Positions 3,922 to 31,309 of a DNA stretch of 64,000 nt are shown in pieces. Each line of letters starts with the position of its first letter. The stretch's first letter is position 1. The position numbers and the translations under genes were made by a program. The notes under the pieces are model-generated. The model saw nothing but the letters and a program-made list of their open reading frames with translations, was not told the origin of the DNA and did not search any database. Source of the DNA: a virus (Duplodnaviria; Heunggongvirae; Uroviricota; Caudoviricetes); IMG/VR virus record IMGVR_UViG_3300046810_000041, positions 1 to 64,000 of that record; one strand, given 5' to 3'.

Positions 3922-3942
3922 CCAACCCGTTAAATTAACCCT
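3922..3942 (+). promoter_or_regulatory. Putative phage-RNAP promoter, exact 21-mer CCAACCCGTTAAATTAACCCT (copy 1)
   Basis: Identical 21-mer present at 5 sites in the window plus one variant. It is flanked by the inverted repeat gggcggcc/ggccgccc and lies upstream of the SSB gene. Confidence 0.6.
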
Positions 3943-4096
3943 AAGGCCGCCCTCCCCAGAGGGAATCCCAGGAGGGAACCCTCAGCTAAACCCTTGGTTA
4001 GTAGTTAGTTATAAACTATTAACTAAGGAGAATTGATTGTAAGAAGCAGTATTAGCATAATGCTAACAGACTAACATTATTTAAAGAGAATACACC

Positions 4097-4705
4097 ATGG
4101 CAATGATCAAAGGCGCAGAAATCCACTACATCAAATGTGACCCGAAGCGTCCGGATGGTACGTACAACAAGAAGAACCCGTCCTGGCAGGTTCAACTTCG
4201 TACTTCGGATACGGCTCAACGTGACAAGTGGAAAGAACAAGGACTGAACGTCAAACTGCTGACTCAGAAGGCAGAAGGCGCGGAAGAAGATGATCCGAAG
4301 ATTCCGGTTCTGACTGCGGATGGCAAGAAGATCTATCGGGTTAACCTGAAGAAGGGCTCGATTAAGAAAGACGGCTCCAAAGCAGAACCGGTGAAGGTGA
4401 TCAACGGTGCTCTCGAAGACATCGATCCGAACACCATCGCAAATGGCTCGATTGCCAATGTCCGTGTCTTCCAGTACGACTACAAGACCGAAGACGGCAA
4501 AGAAGGTATCGCTTCTATGCTGATGGCCATTCAGGTCACTAAGCATATTGTGTATGTGCCTAAAGCACGCGATGACGACTTCGATGTCGAAGAGACCGAG
4601 ACCATCGCAGCACAAGAAGAAATCGGTATGGACGATGATGACCAGCCGAAGGAAAAGAAGAAACCTGCAGCTACTCCGGCAGGTCGCAATGACGATGATT
4701 TCTAA
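4097..4705 (+). CDS. Single-stranded DNA-binding protein, T7 gp2.5-like
   Basis: 202 aa with a highly acidic C-terminal tail ending ...NDDDF (aromatic C-terminal residue as in T7 gp2.5). Position directly after the promoter in the replication module. Confidence 0.65.
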   Translation: MAMIKGAEIHYIKCDPKRPDGTYNKKNPSWQVQLRTSDTAQRDKWKEQGLNVKLLTQKAEGAEEDDPKIPVLTADGKKIYRVNLKKGSIKKDGSKAEPVKVINGALEDIDPNTIANGSIANVRVFQYDYKTEDGKEGIASMLMAIQVTKHIVYVPKARDDDFDVEETETIAAQEEIGMDDDDQPKEKKKPAATPAGRNDDDF

Positions 4706-4720
4706 TCATCAAGTAGTGTA

Positions 4721-4760
4721 GTGTAATACCGGGAGGGTCCTTGAGGCTCTCCCTAATTAT
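4721..4760 (+). repeat. Conserved intergenic element GTAATACCGGG-hairpin-CCCTAATTA (family copy 1)
   Basis: gtaataccgggagggtccttgaggctctccctaattat. Shares its 5' and 3' flanks and a hairpin with the elements at 9404 and 16941. Confidence 0.45.
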
Positions 4761-4777
4761 TGTTATGTGAGAATACA

Positions 4778-5482
4778 ATGAACAACTGGTTTAATGTGCT
4801 GAATCAAGCAGGTAATGTGACTCAGGCAGGTAAAGATTTCAACAAGCTTACGGTGGTCCCTGAAGGACATACTGTGCATATCTTTATTGATGGCAAGCGC
4901 AATACCATCCTCAAGAACCAAGACCAACTCGACGGCTGGCTCGAAGGTCAACAACGTAAATTTGCCTGGAAACCTGAAATGACTGAACAATTTGGACAAC
5001 ATACCATGACTGCAATCGCCCAACTGAATGGTATCGGTACTGACATCAACAATGCAATCAAAGGCCTGAGCAATGCGTTCGGCCCTGTGAGCAACTACAA
5101 TCCACCAAAAGAGCTGATTGGCACTCATGACCTGACGCGCGGTAATGTGGCCAAGATGTCTGACTTGACGGGTACTACCGAAGGGTTCGCAGATAACTAC
5201 GATGCTAAAGGTGGTGCAAGTCATTACAAGGACATTGTGCCGGGTATGCAGTACATGGAAATGATGCAGTACATGCTGGCAAAGTTCACTGGTGTTGAAG
5301 CACACCTGATGGGCCAGCTCTATAAGTATCTGATGCGTTGTGGTAACAAGGATGCCACTCTCCAGGAACTCACCAAGGTTCACTGGTATCTGGAATTCCT
5401 GATGGCATGGCACAAGAATGGTTGCAAGCCGTTCACTCACGAAGAGCAGCTGCGTCTGCTGGCCATGGAATCGGTTCTCTAA
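4778..5482 (+). CDS. Hypothetical protein (234 aa)
   Basis: ORF whose start carries the conserved context GAGAATACAATG. No motif recognised. Confidence 0.55.
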   Translation: MNNWFNVLNQAGNVTQAGKDFNKLTVVPEGHTVHIFIDGKRNTILKNQDQLDGWLEGQQRKFAWKPEMTEQFGQHTMTAIAQLNGIGTDINNAIKGLSNAFGPVSNYNPPKELIGTHDLTRGNVAKMSDLTGTTEGFADNYDAKGGASHYKDIVPGMQYMEMMQYMLAKFTGVEAHLMGQLYKYLMRCGNKDATLQELTKVHWYLEFLMAWHKNGCKPFTHEEQLRLLAMESVL

Positions 5483-5494
5483 GAAAGGCTAAGT

Positions 5495-7384
5495 ATGCCA
5501 CCACATCTGACAAAGAGACTTCTATTCGACATCGAAACTGATGGACTCCTCGTTACAGTAAGTGTAGCTCACATTGTGGGTTACCTGGACCTTGATACAA
5601 ACATCAAGAAAAGCTTCCGTGAAGGTGACGAAGGCTGGCGTGAAGACTTCGACCAGTGCAGACTGTTCGTAGGCCACAACATTATCGGTTATGACTTCCC
5701 GGCAATGTACAAAATCTTCAAGTGGCGTCCACACCCTGCAGCAAACATCCATGATACCATGCTGATGTCCCAAGCTCAGAACTATAGAAGGTTCATGAGC
5801 GGAACTCACAAGCTGGAAGATTGGGGTAATTTCCTGGGTTATCCTAAGGGTGATCATAGTGATTGGTCCAAGTGGACTCCTGATATGCAGATCTATTGGG
5901 AACGAGACATTGACCTGAACAAGAAAGTCTATGACTACTTGCTCGGTGAGTTCCGCGTTCTAATTGGTCGTAACATCTTCTTCAAGAAGTCTCTACAGAA
6001 CGAGCACATGGTTGCTAAGTTCTGTGCTAGAGCGCATGAAGTAGGCTGGCTCTTCGATAAGAAGTCTGGTCATGAGCTGCTGGCTGAAATGAAACAAGCT
6101 CTGCTGGACACGGAAGCAATCATTGTTCCGAAGCTGTTGGTAAAGACTGTAGCAATTGATAAAGTAAAAGGCGAGGTTGAGCCTAAGAAACCGAAGTGGC
6201 TGAAGAACGGCTGCTATGATATCCATACCTGCAAGTATTTCGGGATCACTCCTGAATCCGGTAAGGACGAAGATAATATGCTAGTGGTAGGTCCGTACTC
6301 TCGAATTGAGTTCGTAAATCCTACACTAAAGAATATGGAAGATGTGAAGACTTGGCTCTTCAGCATTGGTTGGGAACCTGACGACTGGAACCTCAAAAAG
6401 GAGCCAGATGGAACATGGCGTAAGGTTTCTCCGAAGCTGTCTGAGTCTTCGCTTCTGGCTTTAGGGCCGGATGGTGAATTGATTAACGACTACACGACTA
6501 CAAAATCTCGACATTCGATCCTGGAAGGCTGGCTGAGTTCCCTGGATGAGAATGATCGAATTCGTGGAGGTTGCTTCACCATTGCAACACCCACAGGTCG
6601 AGCACGGCACTCCGAGGTATGTAATGTACCCGGTGCAGAAGCTCCTTGGGGGAAACAGATCAGGTCGCTGTTCATCGCAGACCCTGGCTGGAAGATTGTT
6701 GGCGCTGACTCGTCTGGTAATCAGTTCCGAGCTTTGTGCCACTATCTGAAGAATGACAAATACACCGAGCTTGTGTTAACAGGTGATGTGCACCAAGAGA
6801 ATGCAAACGTTCTCACGGACATTCTTCAAGACATCGGTGTCTATAACTCCGAGCAGAAGGTGCCTCGTAAGACAGCTAAGCCTTTCATCTATGCATTCTT
6901 ATTTGGTGCAGGCGGTGAGAAGCTGTCGTTGATCGTGCTGGGTACACGTAACAAAAAGATTGGTAACAAGCTGAAGAATGAGTTCATTAAGCGAGTTCCT
7001 GGTCTGGAGCAACTGGTCGATAAAGTAACGAAGTTCTATTACAAGACCGAGCAGTATGGTAAGCCTTACATTCCAGGTGCGGATGGACGTAGGGTGTATT
7101 GTGACTCTCCGCATAAAGCACTGAACTATCTGCTTCAAGATTTTGAGGCTATTAGCTGTAAAGCAGCTGTGGCTTACATTATGGAGAAGTGTGAGAAGGA
7201 AGGTGTGCCATATATCCCACTCATCTGGTATCATGACGAATTTGAAATCATGGTTCCGGAAGAACACGCTGAGAAAGTCAGAGAGTGGAGTATCGAAGCC
7301 TACAGAGAATCAGGCAAGGAGTTTGGCATGATGATTCTGGATGGTGCAGGTAAAGTTGGTGATTCGTGGTATGATGTTCACTAA
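5495..7384 (+). CDS. Family A DNA polymerase with 3'-5' exonuclease domain
   Basis: Exo I motif DIETDGL and Exo II motif HNIIGYDFP. Pol motif A DSSGNQFR, motif B RKTAKPFIYAFLFG, motif C YHDEF. Confidence 0.9.
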   Translation: MPPHLTKRLLFDIETDGLLVTVSVAHIVGYLDLDTNIKKSFREGDEGWREDFDQCRLFVGHNIIGYDFPAMYKIFKWRPHPAANIHDTMLMSQAQNYRRFMSGTHKLEDWGNFLGYPKGDHSDWSKWTPDMQIYWERDIDLNKKVYDYLLGEFRVLIGRNIFFKKSLQNEHMVAKFCARAHEVGWLFDKKSGHELLAEMKQALLDTEAIIVPKLLVKTVAIDKVKGEVEPKKPKWLKNGCYDIHTCKYFGITPESGKDEDNMLVVGPYSRIEFVNPTLKNMEDVKTWLFSIGWEPDDWNLKKEPDGTWRKVSPKLSESSLLALGPDGELINDYTTTKSRHSILEGWLSSLDENDRIRGGCFTIATPTGRARHSEVCNVPGAEAPWGKQIRSLFIADPGWKIVGADSSGNQFRALCHYLKNDKYTELVLTGDVHQENANVLTDILQDIGVYNSEQKVPRKTAKPFIYAFLFGAGGEKLSLIVLGTRNKKIGNKLKNEFIKRVPGLEQLVDKVTKFYYKTEQYGKPYIPGADGRRVYCDSPHKALNYLLQDFEAISCKAAVAYIMEKCEKEGVPYIPLIWYHDEFEIMVPEEHAEKVREWSIEAYRESGKEFGMMILDGAGKVGDSWYDVH

Positions 7385-7389
7385 ATAAA

Positions 7390-7545
7390 ATGGATCCGGT
7401 AGAGTACCTCGAAAGCTTAATAAGCAACGTAACTAAGATGCCAGTTCAAAAGAACGAACTGGAGCTTCTCAAACGATTCATTGAACTGGATCGAGTACGC
7501 AAAGAGGCTGCTCTACTGGCCTCAATTGCACAAACAGGACTTTAG
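7390..7545 (+). CDS. Small hypothetical protein (51 aa)
   Basis: Short ORF immediately after the DNAP stop. Not in the track because it is under 60 aa. Confidence 0.25.
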   Translation: MDPVEYLESLISNVTKMPVQKNELELLKRFIELDRVRKEAALLASIAQTGL

Positions 7546-7550
7546 CATAC

Positions 7551-7739
7551 ATGAACATAAACTTGCTTAGTAAGAAAGCAAAGCTCATCAAACGAACTTA
7601 CAAAGAAGGTTATATCACTGCCCGAAATGGCGATGACTATGGATTTTCGGATGCATGGGAACGAAGTGGTGCCAAAATGGACCATGACGCGTTGTTGAAG
7701 AAGATCGCTAAGCTTAGCCTGAAACACCGTATCAAATAA
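7551..7739 (+). CDS. Hypothetical basic protein (62 aa)
   Basis: ORF in the co-directional string. Confidence 0.4.
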   Translation: MNINLLSKKAKLIKRTYKEGYITARNGDDYGFSDAWERSGAKMDHDALLKKIAKLSLKHRIK

Positions 7740-7774
7740 GTAGTAAAGCGGGTTGTGTAGAATTGCCCTCATGC

Positions 7775-7795
7775 CCAACCCGTTAAATTAACCCT
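7775..7795 (+). promoter_or_regulatory. Putative phage-RNAP promoter, exact 21-mer (copy 2)
   Basis: Exact CCAACCCGTTAAATTAACCCT, flanked by the inverted repeat gccctca/tgagggc. It lies upstream of the lipoprotein gene. Confidence 0.6.
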
Positions 7796-7845
7796 CTTGA
7801 GGGCTTGCAGTACAACATCAATACTAAACTAACTGAAAGTATACA

Positions 7846-8637
7846 ATGAAGAAATTTGCTCTGATGATTATGGTTGCCCTGTCGATGGCAGCATGCACTC
7901 GCGTTCCGACTGGTGAAGTTGGTCTCCGTGTTAACTGGGACAAGACCATCGAAGCGAAAGAGCTGGTTGCTGGTTCGGTCAATCAAACCATCATCGGTGA
8001 CGTCGAGAAATTCCCGATCAAGGAAATCTCGGCAGAAGTGAATGACCTGTCTCCTCTGGCGGCTGACAATAGCACGATGAAGGATTTCGACATCGCAGTT
8101 GTCTACAACCTGAACCCTTCTTCGGTATCCGAACTGTACACCAAGAAGAGTCATTCGTTCCATGCCACCGCAAGGGACACTGGCGATACGTTGCTGATGT
8201 ACTCGTATATCCAGCTGACTGCCCGCAATGCAGTCTTCAAGGAAGCACGAAAGTACGCAGCACTGGAAATGAATGACAAGCGTACTCAGATCGAATCCGA
8301 TATCCTGGCAACCATGAAAGCAACTCTGGCTGCAGAAGGTCTCGGTAACGATATCACCATCTCACAGATCCAGGTCAAGAGCATTGCGCCTTCGGATGCT
8401 GTGAAACAATCGGCTGATGCACTGGTTCGTTCCCAGAATGAACAGAAGCAAAAGCAGATCGAAGTGGGTACTGCGAAGCTGGAATCCGAGCGTATCGCTG
8501 CATTGAACGCCAATGCGGGTGCTATCGGTTACATGCAAGCACAAGCCCAGATGAAAATTGCCGAAGGTATCGCCAATGGCAAGGTTCAAACCGTTGTGGT
8601 GCCTTATGACTTCAAAGGCATGATCAGCGTGAAGTGA
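7846..8637 (+). CDS. SPFH/band-7-like lipoprotein
   Basis: Signal peptide with lipobox MIMVALSMAAC. The segment MKDFDIAVVYNLNP resembles the SPFH core, and a C-terminal coiled coil is typical of HflK/C-like proteins. Confidence 0.5.
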   Translation: MKKFALMIMVALSMAACTRVPTGEVGLRVNWDKTIEAKELVAGSVNQTIIGDVEKFPIKEISAEVNDLSPLAADNSTMKDFDIAVVYNLNPSSVSELYTKKSHSFHATARDTGDTLLMYSYIQLTARNAVFKEARKYAALEMNDKRTQIESDILATMKATLAAEGLGNDITISQIQVKSIAPSDAVKQSADALVRSQNEQKQKQIEVGTAKLESERIAALNANAGAIGYMQAQAQMKIAEGIANGKVQTVVVPYDFKGMISVK

Positions 8638-8783
8638 TGAAAGGTATCCCTTACAAGGATACGTTCGCAGCAAAGGGCTCGGAACTTTATCGAGCTCTTA
8701 CTGAGGGTACTCCTCAACAAGCAAAACAAGTGTACGATGCAACTACGGCTCGTATGAAATCATTAATTGAAAAGAAAGCATAA
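8637..8783 (+). CDS. Small hypothetical protein (48 aa)
   Basis: ATG overlaps the upstream TGA (TGATG). Confidence 0.25.
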   Translation: MKGIPYKDTFAAKGSELYRALTEGTPQQAKQVYDATTARMKSLIEKKA

Positions 8784-8788
8784 ACGAA

Positions 8789-9169
8789 ATGACTACTAAC
8801 ACTACCACCGCTGTTACCAAACCTGCCCGCAAAGTCGCTACTGTCAAGAAAGCAGCAGTGTCGAAGCCTGGCAAACCAGTTGGTGAAGTCAAGATCGTCG
8901 GTGACATCGAGAAATCGAAGCGTCCTCTGATGGTCTCTGACATGGCCTACAAGCAAGTCTTCATCCGTGAAGGCAAGCTGTGCATGCGTGTGATGAATGT
9001 CTGCAATGGCAACATCAAAGGCCGCGCATCGAAGAAAGAACATCTGTGGATCGTCGATCTGGCAGCTGGCAAGACCTTCCTGTCTTCGGACATCCCGGTC
9101 GAACTGGTTGACGTGGAAATCGCGATCACCAACAAGCGCGTTGCTCCCGTCGAGCAAGGTTCGCTGTAA
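8789..9169 (+). CDS. Hypothetical protein with basic N-terminus (126 aa)
   Basis: ORF whose start has the context ATAAACGAAATG, shared with the starts at 11013 and 21677. Confidence 0.5.
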   Translation: MTTNTTTAVTKPARKVATVKKAAVSKPGKPVGEVKIVGDIEKSKRPLMVSDMAYKQVFIREGKLCMRVMNVCNGNIKGRASKKEHLWIVDLAAGKTFLSSDIPVELVDVEIAITNKRVAPVEQGSL

Positions 9170-9203
9170 TACAAACACTGTTCAATAACGTCGAGAGAAT
9201 ACA

Positions 9204-9392
9204 ATGCAACACAAGCAAAAAGCAGTTAGCGCAGTCGGTCAAGAAGCACTGGCACGTCGTCTGAAATCGCCGGGTCACCAGCCGTTCAATCTGGCCCCGA
9301 GCAAGATCAATCGTACGGGCAAGAAGAAAGGCGGCGATCGCACCGTCTATCCGAAGCGCGGCGATTACGCTGTCCAGGCGGTTGCGCAGTAA
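9204..9392 (+). CDS. Small basic protein (62 aa)
   Basis: ORF with the GAGAATACAATG start context. Confidence 0.4.
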   Translation: MQHKQKAVSAVGQEALARRLKSPGHQPFNLAPSKINRTGKKKGGDRTVYPKRGDYAVQAVAQ

Positions 9393-9403
9393 GCTGCAGT
9401 AAA

Positions 9404-9445
9404 GTAATACCAGGGTGGTCTCTAACAAGGGATCACCCTTATTAA
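9404..9445 (+). repeat. Conserved intergenic element GTAATACCAGG-hairpin (AGGGTGGTC...GATCACCCT)-TATTAAT (family copy 2)
   Basis: A 28-nt core agggtggtctctaacaagggatcaccct identical to 16949-16976. It forms a 9-bp stem with a 10-nt loop. Confidence 0.5.
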
Positions 9446-9468
9446 TCTAATCGTGGAATATAGCATAC

Positions 9469-9747
9469 ATGAAGACTCTCAAGAAAGGCGATATTGGTAT
9501 CGCTCAGTTCTTTGATAACTTTCCAGAATACAACGGTCAGGAATGTACTGTCCTGGATGGCCTGGAGTTCCGTGGTTTGATCATGGACGATATGACTACC
9601 CGCGAGAATGTTCTGCGGTATCGTGTACAGTTTCCTGATGGTCAAATCTTGGGGCCGCTCCCGCACCAGCTGCGTCCTCGCCCTGATCCGGATGAGAAGC
9701 ATGCAACGAACGACGAGCAGTACCTTCCAGATGCGGTGGCAGCATGA
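9469..9747 (+). CDS. Hypothetical protein (92 aa)
   Basis: ORF in the co-directional string. Confidence 0.4.
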   Translation: MKTLKKGDIGIAQFFDNFPEYNGQECTVLDGLEFRGLIMDDMTTRENVLRYRVQFPDGQILGPLPHQLRPRPDPDEKHATNDEQYLPDAVAA

Positions 9748-9899
9748 AAAATATCAAGCTCATCACCAGTGTTTGGGATCCAATGTACAACCGTATAATT
9801 CTTGTTGCAGTTTGCGATGACAATACGGTATGGCAAAAGAAAGGTGAGAATGAATGGCGCAGGATTGATGATATCCCGAACAAAGGAATTGTAGAATGA
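9744..9899 (+). CDS. Small hypothetical protein (51 aa)
   Basis: Short ORF whose TGA overlaps the FEN ATG (ATGA). Confidence 0.25.
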   Translation: MKNIKLITSVWDPMYNRIILVAVCDDNTVWQKKGENEWRRIDDIPNKGIVE

Positions 9900-10852
9900 C
9901 CCCGAATATCCAGTTTGATGAAGAAGTACACTTCGTCCCTTTCAACAAAGGTGAAACGCTTGTACTCTTCGATGGTGATGTGATGTGTTTCGTGGCATGT
10001 CCTCCACGTGACTTCATGGATAAGCGGAAGAAGCGTAAGGACGACTTCGAAGTTGTTACCACTCAAACCTTCGATGCACAAGGTAATCGTATCGATGGGC
10101 TCGGTGTGGTGGACACACAAGAAAGTGAGCAGAAGGTGGCGAAGAAGCTGCCCTCGGAATACACGGAAGAAGAAAATGAACAGTACTATGAGACCTGCTG
10201 GGAACACCTGCAGAACAATATCATCAGCACCCGTCAAGGTCTTGATGCTACTGGATTCCTCATGGCTGTCAAGGGCGACGGTAATTACCGGGATGACATC
10301 TTCCCGATCCTTCCGGACGGCACTGGATACAAAGCCAACCGAGCAAAAAATCCTGAACATCGGAATCTGTTCGTACCGAAGCTCCGCAAAGAGCTAGTCA
10401 ATCACAACATTGCTATCGAAGCTGATGGCCGTGAGACTGATGACTTCCTGCGTATCTGGGCTTTCGAAGCGATCGCTGCTGGTGACAAGTTCATCATTGC
10501 AACGATTGACAAAGACCTCGATATGATTCCAGGCCCACATTACCATCTGAAGAAGCTGGTTCGATACACCTCTACGGAGAAGTACTCGACTCGGTTCTTC
10601 TATGAGCAATTGCTTAAAGGTGACCCGACGGATAACATTCCTGGTCTCCCTGGTATTGGCCCAAAGAAGGCCGAAGCGTACCTTGATCCATATGACACTG
10701 AGCAGGAATTCCAGGCTGCAGTGATCGATGGTTACAAGGAAGTCTTCGGCAACGAATGGGAACAGTACCTGCTGGCAAACGGCAAACTGTTGTACTTGCA
10801 GAAGCATATCAACGATCACTTCACCATTCGTGGTTGGGCAAGGTTCAGTTGA
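9896..10852 (+). CDS. 5'-3' exonuclease / flap endonuclease (T7 gp6 / T4 RNase H family)
   Basis: H3TH motif GDPTDNIPGLPGIGPKKAEAY, plus acidic clusters IATIDKDLDM and FDGDVMCF. Confidence 0.85.
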   Translation: MTPNIQFDEEVHFVPFNKGETLVLFDGDVMCFVACPPRDFMDKRKKRKDDFEVVTTQTFDAQGNRIDGLGVVDTQESEQKVAKKLPSEYTEEENEQYYETCWEHLQNNIISTRQGLDATGFLMAVKGDGNYRDDIFPILPDGTGYKANRAKNPEHRNLFVPKLRKELVNHNIAIEADGRETDDFLRIWAFEAIAAGDKFIIATIDKDLDMIPGPHYHLKKLVRYTSTEKYSTRFFYEQLLKGDPTDNIPGLPGIGPKKAEAYLDPYDTEQEFQAAVIDGYKEVFGNEWEQYLLANGKLLYLQKHINDHFTIRGWARFS

Positions 10853-11001
10853 TGTGCGATTGTGCTATCGATGATAACTGCATCTGTGATAACGAGCCTT
10901 TCGAGGAAGGCGACGAGTGTCATGGGTGTGGTTCTGAAGAAGTAAAATGGAACTCTCACCACAGACTTTACATTTGTGATAACTGTGGGTGGGAACACTA
11001 A
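10852..11001 (+). CDS. Small zinc-ribbon protein (49 aa)
   Basis: Two CxxC pairs (CHGCGSEE...CDNCGWEH). ATG overlaps the FEN stop (TGATG). Confidence 0.4.
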   Translation: MCDCAIDDNCICDNEPFEEGDECHGCGSEEVKWNSHHRLYICDNCGWEH

Positions 11002-11012
11002 GGATAAACGAA

Positions 11013-11645
11013 ATGCCTACAGCAGCAGAACTCAAGGCGATGATTAAAGTCATCAAGCCGAAAGTGGCCGAGGTAGAACCAGTAAAGAAGGTTCGAAAAG
11101 GCCGGGTTAGCAAGGACGTCAAAGAACTCAGCTTAAAGCATGAAGACGTCGAAAAGATTCCGAAGGCTAAACGTACCGTTACTCGGCGTAGCGATTACGA
11201 AGGCAACGGGCATTGGGCCTTTGATTCACCTATGGGCGGCAAGGGTAAGTTCGGTTTCATTTATGTGATTCACGATCTGATCAATGATAAGTACTATCTT
11301 GGAAAGAAACAATACCGAGGCACTGGCCAAGAGAATTTTGGAGTCGCTTCCAATTGGCCATGGTATACCTCCAGCCGGGATACCCTCGTAGAATTGATTA
11401 AGGCGCGTGGCAAAGAGCACTTTGAGTTCATTGTGCTTGAAGAGTACTCGTCGAATAAAGCATTGGGTTACGCAGAGACTTGGAGTCTTATGCGGGCAGA
11501 AACACCATCCAACCAAGGTAAATGGTATAACCGACTTGTGAACAAGGTGTCATGGTTCTGTTCAGAGGCAATCACGCAGCGACATAAAGACCGCCTAGAT
11601 GCGATCATCAAAGGTGAAGTGATTATTACTAAAGTGAATATATAA
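11013..11645 (+). CDS. GIY-YIG family endonuclease, possible homing endonuclease
   Basis: GFIYVIHDLINDKYYLGKK matches the GIY...YIG motif, followed by conserved R...H (ARGKEH) and E (LEEY). Free-standing between the FEN and primase genes. Confidence 0.55.
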   Translation: MPTAAELKAMIKVIKPKVAEVEPVKKVRKGRVSKDVKELSLKHEDVEKIPKAKRTVTRRSDYEGNGHWAFDSPMGGKGKFGFIYVIHDLINDKYYLGKKQYRGTGQENFGVASNWPWYTSSRDTLVELIKARGKEHFEFIVLEEYSSNKALGYAETWSLMRAETPSNQGKWYNRLVNKVSWFCSEAITQRHKDRLDAIIKGEVIITKVNI

Positions 11646-11878
11646 TGAACAAGCTTCTTATTGTAGTGTACTTCCTGGCAGCATTTGGTGTTGCCCTTCG
11701 TGGTATGTGGCTCGTAGAGGGTCATTGGGGAACCGTGGAATATCTGCTGTGCTCCTGGTTCTTCATAATGGCAGCTCTGGTGACTTCACTGTTTACTAAG
11801 TGGGTCAAAGACAACAAGTCAACACCTCCGGAAAATAACCCGGAAGAACCTGATGCAGGAGAAGCAGTTCACGTCTAA
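11645..11878 (+). CDS. Small membrane protein (77 aa, two predicted TM helices)
   Basis: Hydrophobic segments LIVVYFLAAFGVAL and LLCSWFFIMAALVTSLF. Confidence 0.4.
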   Translation: MNKLLIVVYFLAAFGVALRGMWLVEGHWGTVEYLLCSWFFIMAALVTSLFTKWVKDNKSTPPENNPEEPDAGEAVHV

Positions 11879-11889
11879 CCGGAGCAACA

Positions 11890-13602
11890 ATGGGTAAGAT
11901 CGTAAAGAAGAATCAGCCGTGTCTCGATGAAAGAAAGTGTGGTTCAAGCGATGCACGGCAAATTTATGAAGCAGGTGATTCATTTTGTTTCGCCTGTTCC
12001 AAAGCATTTCCCGCAGAAGAAGGTAGCATGGCCAAAGCAGATAATGACGATGATTTCGAAATTGAAGAAACGCAGAAGGTAAAGATGTCTGCAGATGGTA
12101 GCGAAGATCATAGCGAACAACTCGCTGAGATTGCTGAATACGTTACCCGTGGTTTCAAAGAACGTAACATCACAAAGACCGTAACTGAATTCTTTGGTGT
12201 TAAAGTCGGCCTCAAGCAAGATGGCAGTATCGATGCACATTACTACCCGTACGGTGATGTCGGTGCTGTTCAAGGATACAAAGTAAGAAAGCTCCCGAAG
12301 GTATTCAGCTATGTAGGCAAGGCTGGTGGCCTCTTCGGTCGCAGTAAGTTTGCTGGTGGTGGTAAGCGTATCATCATCACTGAAGGCGAAATCGATGCAA
12401 TGTCGTTTGCTCAGGCATACCAAGACAAGCATCAAAGGATTTATCCGGTGGTATCACTACCATCGGCTCAAGGTACTGCCCAGCTGATCGCTAACCGCGA
12501 TTGGCTTCGAACGTTTGATGAAGTCATTCTGGCTTTAGACAACGATGAAGTCGGCCAAGCAGCTACCGAGAAAGCAATGAAGATCATTGGCCTGGACAAG
12601 GTCAAGCTGGTCAACTTCGGTGACTACAAGGATGCTAATGAGCTGTTCTTGGCTGAAGGTGGCCAGGCTCTGCTTGTCAAGGTCTACGATGCTCAGATGC
12701 ACAAGCCAGCGGGTATTATGGACCGCAAGGCGATGCGTGAGCAGATGCATGCCAAGAACGAGACCAAGGCTGTACCCTATCCTGACTGCTTGAGGGAACT
12801 CAACGACAAGGTCAAAGGACGTCGCCGTGGTGAGATTGCACTGCATATCTCTGGTACTGGTTCTGGTAAGAGTACTGTTATCCGAGAAATCATCCTCGAT
12901 GATGTGGCTGTACTGGAACCTCATGAGAAGGTTGGTGTTATCTCCTTGGAAGAAACTCCAGGTGATACCGCACGTAACCTTGTCTGTATGCAGCTGAAGA
13001 AGAACCGGAACAAGGTTGAAATCTCTCGCGAAGAGATGGACAAAGGCTTTGACGAGGTATTCGGAACGGACAGTGACGATGAGCGTGTGATTGTTCTTGA
13101 TCACCAAGGCTCGATTAAGGATGCATCTATCCTTGATCAGATTATGTATATGATCCTGATGGGTTGTGTGCACATCTACATCGACCACTTGACCATCCTG
13201 GTTTCAGAAGGTGCTGAAGGTCTAACTGGTAACGAAGCGATCGACAAGATCATGAATGACATGCTGCGTATCGTCAAGAACGAGAACGTTCACATTGGCC
13301 TGGTCTCGCACCTCCGCAAGACTAAAGCAGGTGATAAGTCGTTCGAAGAAGGTTACATGGCAACGATGGACGATATCAAAGGCTCTGGCTCTATCAAGCA
13401 GGTCTGCCTGGATATCTTTGCTTATGCTCGTAACATGAATGCTGAAACGGCTGAAGAGCGTAACACCATCAAGAAAGCAGTGCTGAAATGCCGTGAGACT
13501 GGTGAGACTGGTCCTGTGGCTCCGTCGTACTACGATAGTATGACTGGTCGTCTGGGTAACTCGACCACGGTCAAGATGCCTGAAGAATTCGAGAAAATCT
13601 GA
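11890..13602 (+). CDS. Bifunctional primase-helicase (T7 gp4-like)
   Basis: N-terminal Zn-binding CxxxxxC-GSSD...CFAC as in T7 gp4. TOPRIM segment IIITEGEIDAMS and Walker A HISGTGSGKST of a DnaB-family helicase. Confidence 0.9.
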   Translation: MGKIVKKNQPCLDERKCGSSDARQIYEAGDSFCFACSKAFPAEEGSMAKADNDDDFEIEETQKVKMSADGSEDHSEQLAEIAEYVTRGFKERNITKTVTEFFGVKVGLKQDGSIDAHYYPYGDVGAVQGYKVRKLPKVFSYVGKAGGLFGRSKFAGGGKRIIITEGEIDAMSFAQAYQDKHQRIYPVVSLPSAQGTAQLIANRDWLRTFDEVILALDNDEVGQAATEKAMKIIGLDKVKLVNFGDYKDANELFLAEGGQALLVKVYDAQMHKPAGIMDRKAMREQMHAKNETKAVPYPDCLRELNDKVKGRRRGEIALHISGTGSGKSTVIREIILDDVAVLEPHEKVGVISLEETPGDTARNLVCMQLKKNRNKVEISREEMDKGFDEVFGTDSDDERVIVLDHQGSIKDASILDQIMYMILMGCVHIYIDHLTILVSEGAEGLTGNEAIDKIMNDMLRIVKNENVHIGLVSHLRKTKAGDKSFEEGYMATMDDIKGSGSIKQVCLDIFAYARNMNAETAEERNTIKKAVLKCRETGETGPVAPSYYDSMTGRLGNSTTVKMPEEFEKI

Positions 13603-13609
13603 GGATACA

Positions 13610-13864
13610 ATGCAACACTTTCTGATTAAACGTACTGACACGAAGATCATGCGATTTGCAGTTCGCATGGTGGAAGGTAAGACCAGGAATCACAGCACTC
13701 TGCTGGTGTTCACTAGCCGAGAAGAAGCTCAAGATTACATTGACGATGTGCTCACACCTGAAGCCACCTGGAAAGTTCATCCGGTGACTCTGCGTGGTGC
13801 ACAGGCAATCTTCAACAATATGCGTAATGCTGAATACAAGGCTCAACAAAATGCTCGATCGTAA
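13610..13864 (+). CDS. Hypothetical protein (84 aa)
   Basis: ORF with the GAGGATACAATG start context. Confidence 0.45.
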   Translation: MQHFLIKRTDTKIMRFAVRMVEGKTRNHSTLLVFTSREEAQDYIDDVLTPEATWKVHPVTLRGAQAIFNNMRNAEYKAQQNARS

Positions 13865-14123
13865 ATACATCGTTGTCAAGACCAAAGATACTGGTGAAGA
13901 ACTCATGATCCAGTTCCCGAAGAGCATCAACCACAATGATATGTGGGAGGCTGTACAAAGCATGCGCTGCAACAGCCATGGTCGCAACTGGCATCGCCCA
14001 TTCATCAACGATACGGTGGTGTCGGCAGGTTTCATCAGTCCTATGGGTACCTGCCACGGTAAGAGCGAAAGCCTCAACGTTGCTTCTCGTCCGAAAGAAG
14101 ATACCGCAATCGCGACCAAGTAA
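13851..14123 (+). CDS. Hypothetical Cys/His-containing protein (90 aa)
   Basis: ORF trimmed to the internal ATG that overlaps the upstream stop. Confidence 0.4.
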   Translation: MLDRKYIVVKTKDTGEELMIQFPKSINHNDMWEAVQSMRCNSHGRNWHRPFINDTVVSAGFISPMGTCHGKSESLNVASRPKEDTAIATK

Positions 14124-14234
14124 TTCAACGTAATAAAGTACGGCCATTGGGTGTCCAGTGGTCGTCATAGAAATGTCATATAGAATACACTTAGCCTTGG
14201 TTAGGCATTCGTTTACTGTTCAATTGAGGAATAA

Positions 14235-15215
14235 ATGCCTACCGCAAATATCAAAACTAACAAGGGTGGATACATCGACGAGTATCCAGAGTTCAGCAAG
14301 ATTGCCGATAACCAAGCCAAGATCTTTTGGCCATGGAATGAGATCACTGTGTCGAAAGACAAACAAGATCTTCTGGTCGGCACGAGCGAATCCGAAGCCC
14401 ATGGCATTATCAGTACTCTGAAGCTCTTCACTATCTACGAACTCTTCGTGGGTAAAGAGCAGTGGGGCTCGCGGATTGCTAAGGCTTACCCGCATGTCGG
14501 TCCGGAACGAATGGCAGCAGTGTTTGCTCACGTAGAGCTGAACTCGCATGCCCCGTTCTACAACGAGATCAATAAAGTACTCGGTCTCGGTACTATGGAA
14601 TTCTACAACTCGTATCTGAACGATCCTGTTCTGAAAGCGCGTGTAGACTTCCTGGATAGTCTGGTTGCAAGCGATGACGACGAATTATCCACAGCTTGTT
14701 TCAGTCTGACCGAAGGTGGTATTCTGTACACCTCGTTCGCTTACCTGAAGCACTTCCAGAGCAACGGTAAGAACAAGATTGCGAACATTGTTCGTGGTAT
14801 CAACATGAGTGCTCGCGACGAGAATCTGCACGCTATCGGTGGCGCAGGTCTGGTTAACCAAGCACTCAAGGAGCAAGAACGCTCGACTTACGAGATGCTT
14901 CAGTTCCAACAAGCTGTCGAGGCTGCGGCTGAAAGCGGCTTCAAGCATGAATGTCTGATTGTAGACAAGTTATTTGAGAAAGGCCCAATCGAGGGAATCA
15001 ACGCTCAGCAGCTCAAAGAGTTCGCTAAGAGCCGATTCAACCTTGGTCTTAACAACCTCAATTTGAAATCGATCTTCGAAGTAGAAGATGATACGGTAGC
15101 TGGCTGGTTCTATAAAGGAATCAACAACTACCAGATGAATGATTTCTTCCAGGGTGTAGGTCGCGAATATCAGCGTGATTGGAATCCAAAGCGTTTTGTG
15201 TGGAAGAAGGGCTAA
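14235..15215 (+). CDS. nrdB: Ribonucleotide reductase class I small subunit (NrdB-like, ferritin-like diiron)
   Basis: FWPWNEITVSKD resembles the R2 N-terminal block. Two ExxH diiron motifs are present (VELNSH and RDENLH). It sits immediately upstream of the large subunit. Confidence 0.7.
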   Translation: MPTANIKTNKGGYIDEYPEFSKIADNQAKIFWPWNEITVSKDKQDLLVGTSESEAHGIISTLKLFTIYELFVGKEQWGSRIAKAYPHVGPERMAAVFAHVELNSHAPFYNEINKVLGLGTMEFYNSYLNDPVLKARVDFLDSLVASDDDELSTACFSLTEGGILYTSFAYLKHFQSNGKNKIANIVRGINMSARDENLHAIGGAGLVNQALKEQERSTYEMLQFQQAVEAAAESGFKHECLIVDKLFEKGPIEGINAQQLKEFAKSRFNLGLNNLNLKSIFEVEDDTVAGWFYKGINNYQMNDFFQGVGREYQRDWNPKRFVWKKG

Positions 15216-15218
15216 AGA

Positions 15219-16937
15219 ATGAACCTGTATGAAAAATTGAGGGTAGAACGCAAACAAATGCAAGAAGCTGGTGACATGCCAATGTGGTGGTCTACTGGCG
15301 GCTGGCAGCTGTTCAAAGAGCGTTACCTCTACGCTGTAGATACTCCACGTGAACAAATGTGGCGCATTGCAATCACCCTTGCAAAGCATATCGAAGGCCA
15401 CTACCCGGATTGGTGGTCAGAAGAATACGGTACCAAGACCTGGGCTGAAGTGTTCTTCGATGAAATGTGGTCTGGCCGTCTGTCGCCTTCTACTCCTGTG
15501 TGGAGTAATACTGGCACTGATCGTGGCATGCCTGTTTCGTGCTCCGGTAACGTCATGACTAACAGCATCGACGGTATCTATAAAGCCAAGCGTGAGATTG
15601 CCATCCTGACGAAGAACTCGTTCGGTACCGCAACTTACCTGGGCAACCTGCAATCGCGCGGCACCAAGACCGACAAGGGCGTCAAAGCTTCGGGCATCGT
15701 ACCTGTGGCTGCTGGTCTGGTCAATGACATGGACTATGTGTCTCAGGGTCAGAATCGCCGTGGCGCTGTGGCAACCTACGTCGAGATTACCCACGGTGAC
15801 GCTCCTGAGCTTATGAGCACGCTCGAAGAATTCCCGGATGGTCTGCATGTGGGCTGGCTGATCGAGAAGTCCTTCATCGATGATCTGAACGATGGTAGCG
15901 AGAAGGCTATTGATCTGTTCCAGAACTCGCTGTCGGCAAAGATGAAGACGGGTAAAGGCTACTACAGCTTCATCGATAAAATCAATGGCAACCGTCCTCA
16001 GATGTATGTGGATCGTGGCCTGAAAGTTGTTGCTCCACAGTTGTGTAATGAGATTCACCTGCATTCAAGCGAAGAATATACGTATACCTGTGTCCTTTCG
16101 AGCCAGAACTTGGTTCATTGGGACGATATCAAAGGCAGTAAAGCAACCTTCGTGCATCTGGTCTTCCTGGACTGCGTCAACTCTGAATTCGTGATGCTGG
16201 CCAAAGGTGTACCAGGTCTTGAGAAGGCTGTTCGTTTCGCAGAAGAATCGCGAGCACTCGGTCTGGGTGTTTGTGGTCTGCACACTCTGTTCCAAAAGAA
16301 GCGCCTTCCGTTTGAATCGATGGAAGCACACCTTCTGAACAATGAAATCTTCAATAATCTTCGTGATCAGTCGCTGGAAGCATCTAAGTGGCTGGCACAA
16401 GTTCTGGGAGAACCGCTGTGGTGTAAAGGTTATGGTGTTCGTAATACGCACCGTACTACTTGCCCACCGACCAAGAGCACTGCCCTGATCGCAGGTGGTG
16501 TATCCGAGGGTATTAACCCTGATCCTGGAATGACTTACACTCAGCTGACTCCAGCTGGTGAAGTTGAGCGTGTGAATGTGGAGTTCCTGAAGTGGATGAA
16601 AGAAGCAGGCGTCTACACTAAGGAACATGAACAAGAGATTATCGATGCAGGTGGCTCGGTCCAAGCTTTGGATTGGGTGCCCGACGATATCAAACTCGTG
16701 TTCAAGATCGCATTCGAGATTGATCAACGTGCTATCCTTCGTTTGGGCTCTCAGCGCCAACGTCGACTGTGCCAAGGTCAATCCCTCAATCTGTGGTTCG
16801 CTGCAGATGAGGAAGAGGAATACATTGCTGAAATCGTCTCGGAAGGCTTCCAAGATCCGTGGTGTTTCGGTCTGTATTACTTCTACTCGAAAGCGGGTAT
16901 TGTAGCATCTAAGGGCGAGTGCATGGCTTGCCAATAA
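15219..16937 (+). CDS. nrdA: Ribonucleotide reductase class I large subunit (NrdA-like, no ATP-cone)
   Basis: Active-site-like LCNEI and SSQNL segments, and a C-terminal Cys pair ...GECMACQ as in R1. At 572 aa there is no room for an N-terminal ATP-cone. Confidence 0.75.
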   Translation: MNLYEKLRVERKQMQEAGDMPMWWSTGGWQLFKERYLYAVDTPREQMWRIAITLAKHIEGHYPDWWSEEYGTKTWAEVFFDEMWSGRLSPSTPVWSNTGTDRGMPVSCSGNVMTNSIDGIYKAKREIAILTKNSFGTATYLGNLQSRGTKTDKGVKASGIVPVAAGLVNDMDYVSQGQNRRGAVATYVEITHGDAPELMSTLEEFPDGLHVGWLIEKSFIDDLNDGSEKAIDLFQNSLSAKMKTGKGYYSFIDKINGNRPQMYVDRGLKVVAPQLCNEIHLHSSEEYTYTCVLSSQNLVHWDDIKGSKATFVHLVFLDCVNSEFVMLAKGVPGLEKAVRFAEESRALGLGVCGLHTLFQKKRLPFESMEAHLLNNEIFNNLRDQSLEASKWLAQVLGEPLWCKGYGVRNTHRTTCPPTKSTALIAGGVSEGINPDPGMTYTQLTPAGEVERVNVEFLKWMKEAGVYTKEHEQEIIDAGGSVQALDWVPDDIKLVFKIAFEIDQRAILRLGSQRQRRLCQGQSLNLWFAADEEEEYIAEIVSEGFQDPWCFGLYYFYSKAGIVASKGECMACQ

Positions 16938-16940
16938 CCA

Positions 16941-16981
16941 TGTAACACAGGGTGGTCTCTAACAAGGGATCACCCTTTTTA
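16941..16981 (+). terminator. Conserved element family copy 3: hairpin agggtggtc...gatcaccct followed by TTTTT
   Basis: The same 28-nt core as 9412-9439, here followed by a T5 run. Lies directly after the nrdA stop. Confidence 0.55.
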
Positions 16982-16995
16982 ATTGAGAGTATACA

Positions 16996-17340
16996 ATGTG
17001 GCAGTACGGTTGTGACAAGGATAAAGGAGAAAATTCATTTAGGGCCAATTATGAATATCATATTTGGGAAGGCAAGCGTTCTAACACTATATTCACCTGG
17101 TGCCAAAAGACACCAGCGAGTAAACGAAAGGTATGGGTAGAACAAATATTATTCTGGAGAGAAATCTTTGGTGATAGTATACCTGAGCCTGAATGTAAAG
17201 ATTTCACCTCAACCCGAGGAGCTGTGCACTATAAAGGTGTACATATTATCTCAACACCTCGTATTAGAAAGGACAGAGAAATTATTGCAGCGTACTTAGC
17301 TAAGCTTTTAAACTTGGCTGAGGACAAAGAGCATATGTGA
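16996..17340 (+). CDS. Hypothetical protein in a markedly AT-rich segment (114 aa)
   Basis: ORF whose base composition is visibly more AT-rich than its neighbours. Possible laterally acquired moron or endonuclease. No motif assigned. Confidence 0.4.
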   Translation: MWQYGCDKDKGENSFRANYEYHIWEGKRSNTIFTWCQKTPASKRKVWVEQILFWREIFGDSIPEPECKDFTSTRGAVHYKGVHIISTPRIRKDREIIAAYLAKLLNLAEDKEHM

Positions 17341-17356
17341 CCAAAGGAGATTATCA

Positions 17357-17523
17357 TGCCAAAGAAAGTCGAAGAAGCACTTTACAGGCAGGCTAAGAAG
17401 AAGGGCTTGAATGAAGAGGAAACTAAGCGATATGTATTTGGTACGATGAACAAGCGTGGCTTACTGAACAAAAGCGACAAGATCAAGTCCACAGAACGAT
17501 CTAGAAAATCTGATAAAAAGTAA
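17357..17523 (+). CDS. Small lysine-rich protein (55 aa)
   Basis: Short ORF MPKKVEEALYRQAKKKG... Confidence 0.3.
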
Positions 17524-17533
17524 ATAGGATAAA

Positions 17534-17920
17534 ATGAAACAAGTAATCTTTGTGTTTGGTTCGAACCTGGCTGGTCGTCATGGCAAGGGCGCTGCGGAAT
17601 ACGCCAAGAAACATTGCGGTGCTATTCCAGGGCAAGGAGAAGGACTTCAAGGCCAAAGCTATGCGATCCCTACTAAGGATGGTCGTAACGGTAAGTATCT
17701 TGGAGCTCCTTCCCAAACGCTCTCCTTGGCTCGAATCAGAACGCATGTCAATACCTTCATTGACTTCGCGATCAACAACCCACAAATGTTATTCCATGTA
17801 ACACCAATCGGTTGTGGTCTGGCAGGTTACAAACATGCTCAGATCGCACCACTGTTCTTGAATGCACCCGAGAACTGTTTGCTGCCGCCAGAATTCACGG
17901 CTATCTTGAATCAACAATAA
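17534..17920 (+). CDS. Hypothetical protein with Gly-rich N-terminus (FVFGSNLAGRHGKGAA)
   Basis: ORF. The Gly-rich loop suggests a nucleotide- or phosphate-binding fold, but the family is not recognised. Confidence 0.5.
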   Translation: MKQVIFVFGSNLAGRHGKGAAEYAKKHCGAIPGQGEGLQGQSYAIPTKDGRNGKYLGAPSQTLSLARIRTHVNTFIDFAINNPQMLFHVTPIGCGLAGYKHAQIAPLFLNAPENCLLPPEFTAILNQQ

Positions 17921-17930
17921 GAGGAATACA

Positions 17931-18227
17931 ATGCAATTCGGTCTCACATCGCAAGAGCGGGTAAAGAAGTATATCGTAGGTTGGTGGAAGTTCGCATGGC
18001 TGCCAACAAAGATGTCTGATGGTAGCTGGGTGTGGTTGCAAGAATTTTGGATGCATTATCCTGGAGCCTGGGATGCATACCGTAAGCACTTCTTCCTTTA
18101 CACCATTGGTGGATTTATGGGTGATGGTGAGATTTACCAAAAGAAGTTTGCTACACTGCCGTCTCCAGATTATATGTGCAAATACGCTAACATCACTGAA
18201 TTTGAACTCAAACCTGTCGAAATCTGA
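17931..18227 (+). CDS. Hypothetical protein (98 aa)
   Basis: ORF with the GAGGAATACAATG start context. Confidence 0.45.
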   Translation: MQFGLTSQERVKKYIVGWWKFAWLPTKMSDGSWVWLQEFWMHYPGAWDAYRKHFFLYTIGGFMGDGEIYQKKFATLPSPDYMCKYANITEFELKPVEI

Positions 18228-19053: not shown

Positions 19054-19139
19054 TCGTTAAAAGAGCGGTTATAAGGGTATCTTATATGAAGAATGTAAGA
19101 TATCCTTCAATCATTGTGTAGAATATACTGGAATAAATA

Positions 19140-20226: not shown

Positions 20227-20326
20227 GGCTAATATGAATGAATATCCTTTCATAGCTGCTATTTTAGTAGCATTCATAGCAGGAGTCCGTGTGGGCTACC
20301 TGTTGGCTAAATAATACAGGAATACA

Positions 20327-20620
20327 ATGAACAGTTTGGAAATGCTGTTGGCCCAAGGCGCTGAAGAAGGTAGCGAGTTTGCACAAGCATGTGTGAAGAT
20401 TCTTCGCTTCGGTCCTGATTCTACCTTTCAAGGTGAATCTAATCTCATGCAACTTCGCAAGGAGTTCATTGATGTGTTGGGCGTAGCAAGTCTGTTGCAA
20501 GATGAAGGCCTTCTGCCGAGGATGAATGACCCTGAAGTAGCATTCGGCGTTCAAGCTAAGCGCGAGAAGGTGAAACGTTACATGGATGTGTCCGAGCAGT
20601 TGGGCACCCTGCAGCGTTAA
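20327..20620 (+). CDS. Hypothetical protein (97 aa)
   Basis: ORF with the AGGAATACAATG start context. Confidence 0.45.
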   Translation: MNSLEMLLAQGAEEGSEFAQACVKILRFGPDSTFQGESNLMQLRKEFIDVLGVASLLQDEGLLPRMNDPEVAFGVQAKREKVKRYMDVSEQLGTLQR

Positions 20621-23310: not shown

Positions 23311-23360
23311 GCGCTCCTTAATCGGGGCGCTTGGTGGTGTCTTCGGATGCCACCCTTTTT
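23311..23360 (+). terminator. Two tandem hairpins (gcgctcc-TTAATC-ggggcgc, then ggtggtgtc-UUCG-gatgccacc) followed by TTTTT
   Basis: Inverted repeats read directly. The second has a UUCG tetraloop and a T5 run. Lies directly after the DHH gene. Confidence 0.5.
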
Positions 23361-23732: not shown

Positions 23733-23753
23733 CCAACCCGTTAAATTAACCCT
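23733..23753 (+). promoter_or_regulatory. Putative phage-RNAP promoter, exact 21-mer (copy 3, tandem pair)
   Basis: Exact CCAACCCGTTAAATTAACCCT followed by GAAAGGGAACGA. It is the first of two copies 64 bp apart. Confidence 0.6.
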
Positions 23754-23796: not shown

Positions 23797-23817
23797 CCAA
23801 CCCGTTAAATTAACCCT
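23797..23817 (+). promoter_or_regulatory. Putative phage-RNAP promoter, exact 21-mer (copy 4, tandem pair)
   Basis: Exact 21-mer with the same downstream GAAAGGGAACGA. It is the second unit of a roughly 64-bp tandem duplication upstream of the gene at 24004. Confidence 0.6.
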
Positions 23818-25182: not shown

Positions 25183-25187
25183 CACCT

Positions 25188-25209: not shown

Positions 25210-25226
25210 TAATTATTGAGGATGTA

Positions 25227-31269: not shown

Positions 31270-31284
31270 AAAATTTTGGCTGGT

Positions 31285-31305: not shown

Positions 31306-31309
31306 CAAC

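Follow-up and report, generated by a model that had tools for sequence, protein, structure and literature searches.

Introduction

Hairpins located between genes have been described in several systems to which the repeated element analyzed here can be compared. The element was found in a 64,000-nucleotide (nt) stretch of DNA from a virus of the Caudoviricetes (IMG/VR record IMGVR_UViG_3300046810_000041, positions 1 to 64,000; this whole stretch is called the window below), and it consists of a short head (GTAAYAC), a stem–loop and a U/A-rich tail. Three copies had been reported in an earlier note on this DNA, and they are referred to as copy 1 (4723–4762), copy 2 (9404–9447) and copy 3 (16942–16985). 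With intrinsic terminators and the class I terminators of phage T7 (T-phi) the element shares a G-C-rich stem–loop, which on the sense strand directly follows a stop codon and precedes a U-rich tract, and in the clade to which the virus belongs the loops are often UUCG or GNRA. The T7 T-phi terminator also follows stop codons in several frames (TAACTAGCATAAC). On the other hand, two or three A's typically interrupt the U tract of the elements (UUUUAAUU), which continues into the ribosome-binding site of the next gene, the scores of copies 1 and 2 are below the threshold of a terminator score trained on Escherichia coli, and the soft preference for TAA-YAC on the 5′ side has no counterpart in those terminators.

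Three other systems are also similar in part. The stabilizer hairpins and attenuators of the malEFG repetitive extragenic palindromic (REP) type, of Rhodobacter puf and of pap set different levels of the upstream and downstream mRNA segments. They resemble the elements in being located between genes of one unit and repeated within a genome; however, they act mainly via decay after endonuclease cleavage, while here neither a cognate transposase among the ORFs scanned nor host copies in the genome collection were found. The RNase III sites of T7 are helices of about 20 base pairs (bp) with an internal loop. They too are intergenic hairpins in a phage with a single-subunit polymerase, and cutting would leave a 3′ hairpin, but the stems in the window are simple and only 9–12 bp long. 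Finally, the T4-type promoter–stem–loop cassettes (PeSL) are also short, near-identical regulatory modules found at gene junctions that are unrelated to each other, as would fit a spread by recombination. Hairpins fused to a promoter-like box, as in PeSL cassettes, are present in two related loci (L028 and L039), while no promoter is attached to copies 1–3 in the window.

Results and Discussion

Terminator-type hairpins in a group of uncultured siphoviruses

The elements are probably intercistronic stem–loops of a terminator archetype, common to a large uncultured group of siphoviruses in which the RNA polymerase is of the T7 type. As RNA hairpins that follow genes at their 3′ ends, in a phage with a single-subunit RNA polymerase of its own, they are best read as having a terminator-type role. 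All long open reading frames (ORFs) of the window are on the + strand. They include a T7-type single-subunit RNA polymerase (430–2706), a gp2.5-like single-stranded DNA-binding protein (SSB; 4097–4705, with the true stop codon at 4703–4705), a family A DNA polymerase, a primase-helicase and both ribonucleotide reductase subunits, as well as the structural proteins terminase, portal, major head, major tail and a tape measure protein of 2916 amino acids (aa). This gene content identifies the window as DNA of an uncultured siphovirus with its own T7-type RNA polymerase. A megablast search with positions 4000–18000 gave no DNA-level matches in phage records, and the closest cultured relatives by polymerase are the roseophages DSS3_VP1 and DSS3_PM1 (34% identity). 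Metagenomes contain a large group of relatives with polymerase identities of 51–69% and the same gene order as the window, and the sole contig with an exact copy of one window protein comes from run SRR26076577. The clade hairpin set used below comprised 343 intergenic hairpins from 84 sequences, which were 83 related loci and the window. The loci retrieved via the ribonucleotide reductase gene (L001–L005) do not share the elements, except for one hairpin in L002.

Sequence and structure of the three copies

The 28-mer AGGGTGGTCTCTAACAAGGGATCACCCT, which had been described as perfect in two copies, is indeed present without a mismatch at 9412–9439 and 16949–16976, on the + strand only. No further copy was found in the window with up to three mismatches allowed (0 expected by chance), and there was no exact match in public collections (viral, metagenome, and a genome collection of 185,579 species). 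The identity between copies 2 and 3 spans 36 nt with one mismatch (9411–9446 versus 16948–16983; 35/36) and has sharp ends, and the sole difference in the tails is TTATTAAT versus TTTTTAAT. Duplication of a neighboring gene was rejected as the origin of this repeat, because the DNA identity ends at the element, beyond which the flanking DNA and the downstream ORFs of the two copies are unrelated. We infer that copies 2 and 3 arose by recent duplication of one ~40-nt terminator module. Copy 1 has the sequence GTAATACC-GGGAGGGTC-cttga-GGCTCTCCC-TAATTATTG, and its hairpin at 4731–4753 does differ from the 28-mer, as had been observed. The consensus flanks GTAATACCRGG and CCCTWATTA, which had been assigned to all three copies, fit copy 1 but do not fit copy 3 exactly, where the head is GTAACAC-A rather than GTAATACC and the tail is CCCTTTTTA rather than CCCTWATTA.

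Copy 1 is located immediately 3′ of the SSB gene. Its 5′ spacer (4714–4729; TAGTG-TAGTG-TAATAC, read directly from the sequence) contains stops in all three frames and ends in the GTAATAC head (4723–4729), while its stem–loop (4731–4753) has 9 bp, including two G.U pairs, a CUUGA loop and a stability of −14 kcal/mol. The tail TAATTATTG (4754–4762) is a U/A tract leading to the ribosome-binding site of gene 4778–5482. In copy 2, the TAA of the GTAATAC head (9404–9410) is in frame with the true stop codon at 9390–9392, and the stem–loop formed by the 28-mer (12 bp, two G.U pairs, loop AACA, −18.4 kcal/mol, z = −5.0) is followed by the tail TATTAATC (9440–9447), which is an interrupted U tract. 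Copy 3 is placed immediately 3′ of the gene of the ribonucleotide reductase large subunit and consists of the head GTAACAC (16942–16948), the 28-mer, and the tail TTTTAATTG (16977–16985), which together with T16976 gives a run of five T's (T16976–16980). Hence, the observation that among the three copies only the one at 16949 has a T-run was correct. The hairpin that had been described for the 28-mer as a 9-bp stem with a 10-nt loop folds better with 12 bp, including two G.U pairs, and a 4-nt loop. In copy 2 an A-U extension over a 2-nt bulge gives 17 bp at most. This extension is not kept in copies 1 and 3, and pairing of flank to flank as an extended helix was seen in copy 2 alone.

The elements are RNA-level hairpins belonging to the 3′ ends of the upstream genes

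The stability of copies 1–3 is between −14 and −18.4 kcal/mol over 23–28 nt. The stems carry two to three G.U pairs, and for this reason the fold of the + strand is 6–7 kcal/mol more stable than that of the − strand. The commonest loops among the clade hairpins were UUCG (50 hairpins) and GAAA (22 hairpins), while their reverse complements were not common. Both loops are RNA-specific stabilizing tetraloops.

The position of the hairpins connects them to the upstream rather than the downstream gene. In 105 cases in which the distance from a stop codon to the next start was 80–150 nt, the hairpin followed the stop by a median of 14 nt and preceded the next start by a median of 57 nt, and the median distance from stop to hairpin in the clade was about 10–14 nt. 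The full composite of head, hairpin and tail, which is present in four relatives (L013, L019, L029 and L042), starts there 7–9 nt after the stop and 62–211 nt before the next start. Across the 84 sequences, GTAAYAC was directly followed by a hairpin in 16/211 cases on the + strand versus 2/242 on the − strand.

Further members of the family in the window

The family is not limited to three copies, as had been assumed. A fourth copy with the same head is located at 25179–25218 on the + strand (GTAACAC-CT-AGCGTCCC-ttaatt-GGGGCGCT-TAATTATTG); its tail is identical to that of copy 1, and the TAA of its head is the stop codon of ORF 24916–25182. A fifth copy, at 46425–46460 on the + strand (GTAATAC-A-TGGAGGGTGTTC-ttag-GAGCATCCTCCG), follows the major tail protein gene and is without a U tract, while the core of its stem resembles that of copies 2 and 3 (AGGGTGKTC / GAKCAYCCT). 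Two variants with the head GTAGTAC are also on the + strand. One of them (42–127) is a long hairpin with a 14-bp G-C core (60–103) and a following T17 tract (111–127), and is the strongest terminator of the window, placed where the late region ends, before the gene of the RNA polymerase. In the other (27151–27186), which is preceded by stops in three frames (27141–27154), the head is separated by 7 nt from the hairpin GAGGGC..GCCCTC (27165–27186).

The family hairpins are all intergenic, on the + strand, and begin 6–26 nt past the upstream stop codon; no family member was found in coding sequence. Among the strong hairpins of the window, 12/24 fall into the 10% that is non-coding, and GTARTAC is present 26 times versus 8.6 expected. 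However, the whole family has in common just the 7 nt of GTAAYAC and a tail of 5–6 nt. The loops of the other members (CTTGA, TTAATT, TTAG) are unrelated to that of copies 2 and 3, and therefore the loop common to these two copies is no proof of a function of the loop. The proposal that conservation of flanks and loop argues for a sequence-specific function unlike that of a generic terminator is not supported. A + strand complement of the 10-nt loop was also searched for, and none beyond chance was found.

As a separate observation, a second TGTAGTACGG is located 3′ of the T17 tract, followed by an extended −10-like sequence, TGTTATAAT, at 159–167, before a small ORF (190–321) and the polymerase gene. 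The sequence TAGAATATACTG from the 42–178 region reappears at about 19120.

Conservation and covariation of the hairpin after the SSB gene

At the position of copy 1, a hairpin within 70 nt after the SSB stop codon was present in 39/66 distinct related loci. Its typical form is (AAA)GGGCTACTC-loop-GGGTAGCCC(TTT)-TTAATTG, with frequent UUCG or GAAA loops and a tail of the TTTTAAT type, and EBPR siphovirus 1 (JF412302) has the same arrangement 3′ of its gp9. The RNAalifold consensus of 28 relatives contained 11 pairs, of which nine had compensatory double changes. A covariance model, R2, was built from the post-SSB hairpins of these 28 relatives alone, and the whole window was scanned with it on both strands without filtering. 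The E-values are rough. The two best matches were copy 3 (16943–16986; 21.2 bits, E about 0.004) and copy 2 (9405–9450; 18.1 bits, E about 0.03). The third (29544–29587; 15.6 bits, E about 0.12) is inside predicted ORF 29357–29731 and reflects either chance or a wrong call of this ORF, and the fourth was a weak match to the fifth copy (46427–46470; 9.7 bits, E 4.6). Copy 1 was not detected by R2 in the window scan, and was found only once it was included in the training set. In the relatives R2 also matched junctions other than the one after SSB, with 18–28 bits.

In the light of R2, the flanks can be read differently. The RGG and CCCT of the consensus given earlier are the G-C base of the stem (AGGG/CCCT) and not separate flanks, a further part of the flanks is a spacer rich in stop codons, and WATTA is the U/A tract merging with the ribosome-binding site of the next gene. 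This tract runs directly into the GGAG of the next gene in many relatives, and into GAGAG or GAGGA in the window. The 5′ consensus of R2, aaaAcaA, corresponds to AATACC and AACAC. In a comparison with Rfam, only tRNAs passed the gathering score in the window, and nothing was found within 4000–17500 at E ≤ 1.

Repeated identical hairpins are common in the group, with three copies in L028, four in L039 and two in L051. In L028 (5520–5600, 6000–6080 and 6980–7060) and L039 (183–1760) they are parts of identical early-region modules, in which GAAGCCA-TTAGAAATA-GTGGCTTC, a hairpin, is followed by AATAATGTGTTAATGGTGACACAGAC. The GGTGACAC within this module is identical to the SP6 promoter from position −12 to position −5, and from their sequence the modules look like terminator–promoter cassettes.

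Proposed mechanism and terminator strength

From the sequence, strand-specific fold, position, conservation and covariation of the hairpins we infer termination or attenuation, protection of the upstream message, and the polymerase involved. When the + strand is transcribed, the G-C-rich hairpin would form a few nt past the upstream stop codon, and a fraction of the polymerases would be released because the U/A-rich tract would make a weak RNA:DNA hybrid. With five U's, the site at 16949 would terminate efficiently, while the interrupted U tracts at 4731 and 9412 would make termination leaky there. Once left at the 3′ end, the hairpin would shield the upstream message from 3′ exonucleases, and the outcome would be a stepwise drop of expression between neighbors, for example high SSB and lower expression of the downstream genes. 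The feature is thus real but ordinary, a terminator-type hairpin archetype of the clade with one member duplicated. Its value is mainly in annotation, as a first sketch of transcription units for a large uncultured siphovirus group with T7-type RNA polymerases, and in showing that a terminator module can be duplicated in such genomes, so that short repeats with near identity need not be special signals.

The strength of the hairpins was compared using a rough d'Aubenton-Carafa score, which is trained on E. coli and was used with modern energy parameters, and in which a positive d indicates a canonical intrinsic terminator. The T17 element at 42–127 had d = +25 and copy 3 d = +10, while the score was −16 for copy 2, −21 for the fourth copy (hairpin from 25188), −23 for copy 1 (T-score 1.9, sub-threshold) and −40 for the fifth copy (46433). 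Among the post-SSB hairpins of the relatives, 12/39 had a positive d, about 10 more were within about 14 units of zero, and most of those that did not pass have tails of the TTTAAA type.

The possible sites of initiation were also considered. The 20-mer CCAACCCGTTAAATTAACCC is the best candidate for a phage promoter, judged by its sequence. It is present at 3922–3941, 7775–7794, 23733–23752, 23797–23816 and 29172–29191, and with one mismatch at 31285–31304; all copies are intergenic and on the + strand, and one of them is located between tRNA-Arg and tRNA-Trp. The SSB gene is bracketed by the candidate promoter at 3922 and copy 1, and a block of four genes by the candidate promoter at 7775 and copy 2. 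The candidate promoter at 23733 is located after a double hairpin with a T tract (23311–23354), and in relatives a hairpin with a T tract also adjoins candidate promoter boxes.

Several observations weigh against a terminator role. Of copies 1–3 only copy 3 passes the score, copies 1, 2 and the fourth copy are well below zero, and the fifth copy has no U tract at all. The GTAAYAC head is also only partly explained. Moreover, there is no candidate promoter of the CCAACCCGTTAAATTAACCC type in the 16 kb between 7775 and 23733, and therefore copies 2 and 3 must be passed by many polymerases, unless other promoters exist. Such read-through agrees with leaky termination, with stabilization of the RNA, or with both.

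Alternative explanations

The same features would be accounted for if the hairpins served only processing and stability of the RNA. Polymerases would read through, a host endonuclease (of the RNase E type in the tail, or RNase III) would cut beside the hairpin, and the hairpin would block exonucleases, which would give the segments specific half-lives. We regard this as unlikely, even though it agrees with the weak U tracts in copies 1, 2 and the copy at 25188, with their absence at 46433, 14140, 22406 and 24533, and with the read-through required over the 16 kb; the tails are also A/U-rich and single-stranded and lie beside a stable stem, and across the clade they are only modestly T-rich (0.37–0.44). 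It does not explain why copy 3 and many of the orthologous post-SSB hairpins have canonical U4–U5 tracts. As stems of 9–12 bp (17 bp at most, in copy 2) are short for RNase III, the RNase III processing site that had been suggested for the element is unlikely as well.

The second alternative concerns the head. The head (GTAAYAC, or AAACAA in relatives), the hairpin and UUUUAAU could form a sequence-specific signal for a phage factor, as a dedicated terminator or pause site, or as an operator for an RNA-binding protein. This is improbable, but it would explain why the head is placed 0–3 nt from the hairpin regardless of the distance to the true stop codon, and why the composite recurs in the four relatives named above. 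Among the 343 hairpins, head and tail co-occurred in 12 versus about three expected, and one relative (L012) has shared flanks of its own, TTCGTAGCA..TTAATCC. An account in which the 5′ flank provides stops in all three frames, fits 4714–4726, 46418–46428 and 27141–27154, but it was rejected as a general rule, because 179 clade hairpins were equal to shuffled sequences (1.23 versus 1.19 frames closed). On the other hand, the conservation of the flanks across the clade is weak, with no flank position above 0.45 for any base. In the relatives YAC after a stop triplet beside a hairpin is enriched only about threefold (11/123), stems and loops vary freely, and the tail blends into the ribosome-binding site that follows. 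The uniformity of the head in the window may result from copying within the genome. Of the earlier suggestion of a terminator or pause site for the phage RNA polymerase, the terminator-type role is supported, while a sequence-specific signal is improbable. The T7 class II signal ATCTGTT was present 10 times versus 12 expected, and not near any copy.

A further version of this idea, to which we give only a slim chance, is that the head, the AGGG..CCCU stem and the UUUUAAU tail are a dedicated signal that has co-evolved with the single-subunit polymerases of the group, possibly including the candidate virion polymerase fused to a head protein that is described below. If so, it would be a sequence-assisted class of terminators separate from T7 class I and class II. 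A functional 5′ motif would define termination in an unstudied branch of single-subunit polymerases, and could be useful for orthogonal transcription parts.

It is very unlikely that the element is a neutral or selfish repeat, that is, a functionless palindromic module spread by recombination among intergenic regions. The near-identity of copies 2 and 3 (35/36) with sharp boundaries and unrelated neighbors, the identical repeats of the relatives, and the GTAR head, which recalls the GTAG head of REP elements, would be expected of such a repeat. However, the 28-mer is absent from the genomes of the 185,579 species and from viral and metagenome contigs, and no transposase-like (Y1) gene was found among the subset of ORFs scanned. 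The position, orientation and structure are also kept clade-wide with compensatory changes. That the hairpins are promoters of the N4 type for a second, virion-carried RNA polymerase is hardly credible: although a fusion of a head protein and an RNA polymerase is encoded and the three hairpins with shared flanks are just upstream of genes, on the template strand C.A mismatches take the place of the G.U pairs, the loops are not conserved, the hairpins of the relatives are anchored to upstream stops 62–211 nt before the next start, the copies are in the replication and tail regions and not in the early region, and better promoter candidates exist.

Other candidate roles were rejected. Mimicry of Shine-Dalgarno and anti-Shine-Dalgarno sequences had been considered for GGATCACC in copies 2 and 3, which is like the 3′ end of 16S rRNA, but the clade hairpins showed no polarity of GGAG and CCTCC between the 5′ and 3′ arms. 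Sites similar to sigma-70 promoters numbered 23 versus 24 expected, with none at the elements on the + strand. Sequences like T7 primase sites (GGGTC / TGGTC) in the stems are absent from the other copies, and were hence treated as a coincidence. A T7-type promoter, in which about 17–23 contiguous nt are conserved, is not consistent with a family sharing just 7 nt and a short tail, and CCAACCCGTTAAATTAACCC fits such a promoter better.

Candidates for promoters and for a second polymerase

Exact copies of the candidate promoter CCAACCCGTTAAATTAACCC are present in 17 stretches of viral contigs and 21 of metagenome contigs. Among these contigs are at least five from which polymerase loci were retrieved, with polymerases just 56–60% identical to that of the window; exact conservation of the 20-mer across such divergent polymerases is unusual. 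Many of its copies are followed a few nt further on by a C-rich box of the type GRCGYCCCYCCC.

A second clade-wide motif, (A/T)GCGGAAAA-N4-6-GGTATCTTATATGAAG, is present in the window at 19069–19103 and 23916–23944, and in one to three copies each in L022, L042, L050, L055, L056, L064, L077 and other loci. In the relatives it is mostly located 1–3 kb upstream of the polymerase gene, and some copies are placed in a hairpin with a conserved loop. Its end, ATAT-GAAG, is similar to the SP6 promoter around the start (TATA-GAAG). This motif may be an early promoter class, possibly read by a virion polymerase.

The ORF at 37700–42619 (1639 aa), immediately after the portal gene, consists of a head-morphogenesis domain of the Mu F / SPP1 gp7 type (aa 55–360) fused to a T7-type RNA polymerase region (Pfam RNA_pol, 45 bits versus a cutoff of 22). 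Its QDASSSG and IHDAF align with polymerase motifs of the free-standing enzyme, which makes it a candidate for a virion-carried second polymerase. In phage records homologues of its C-terminal part were found only in EBPR siphovirus 1 (58%; split by an HNH gene) and in the Naomiviridae DSS3_VP1 and DSS3_PM1 (34%), and these are annotated merely as head, minor head or hypothetical protein. The fusion and the two clade-invariant promoter-like motifs may outrank the hairpins in interest.

Other features of the window

A gene of a SegE-type GIY-YIG homing endonuclease (11013–11645) is located between the exonuclease and primase-helicase genes, and has an equivalent in relative L009. A cluster of 9–10 tRNA genes is placed at 31193–33348; ARAGORN assigned them to Arg, Trp, Asn, Gln, Pro, Tyr, Thr, Ile and Gly, Rfam added a match at 32137–32208, and the ARAGORN Tyr call at 32262–32354 is absent from the Rfam results. 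The slippery heptamer G GGA AAG at 47058–47064, which is the same as the lambda G/GT site, is immediately 5′ of the stop of ORF 46756–47067, and after it the −1 frame is open for at least 91 codons across an apparent 192-nt gap; the heptamer probably gives rise to a frameshift of a tail assembly chaperone. Finally, many genes of the replication region have the initiation context GAG(A/G)ATACAATG (4766–4780, 9192–9206, 13598–13612, 16984–16998, 20315–20329 and others), while late genes instead use AAGGAG or AAAGGA, which suggests a class-specific translation initiation region.

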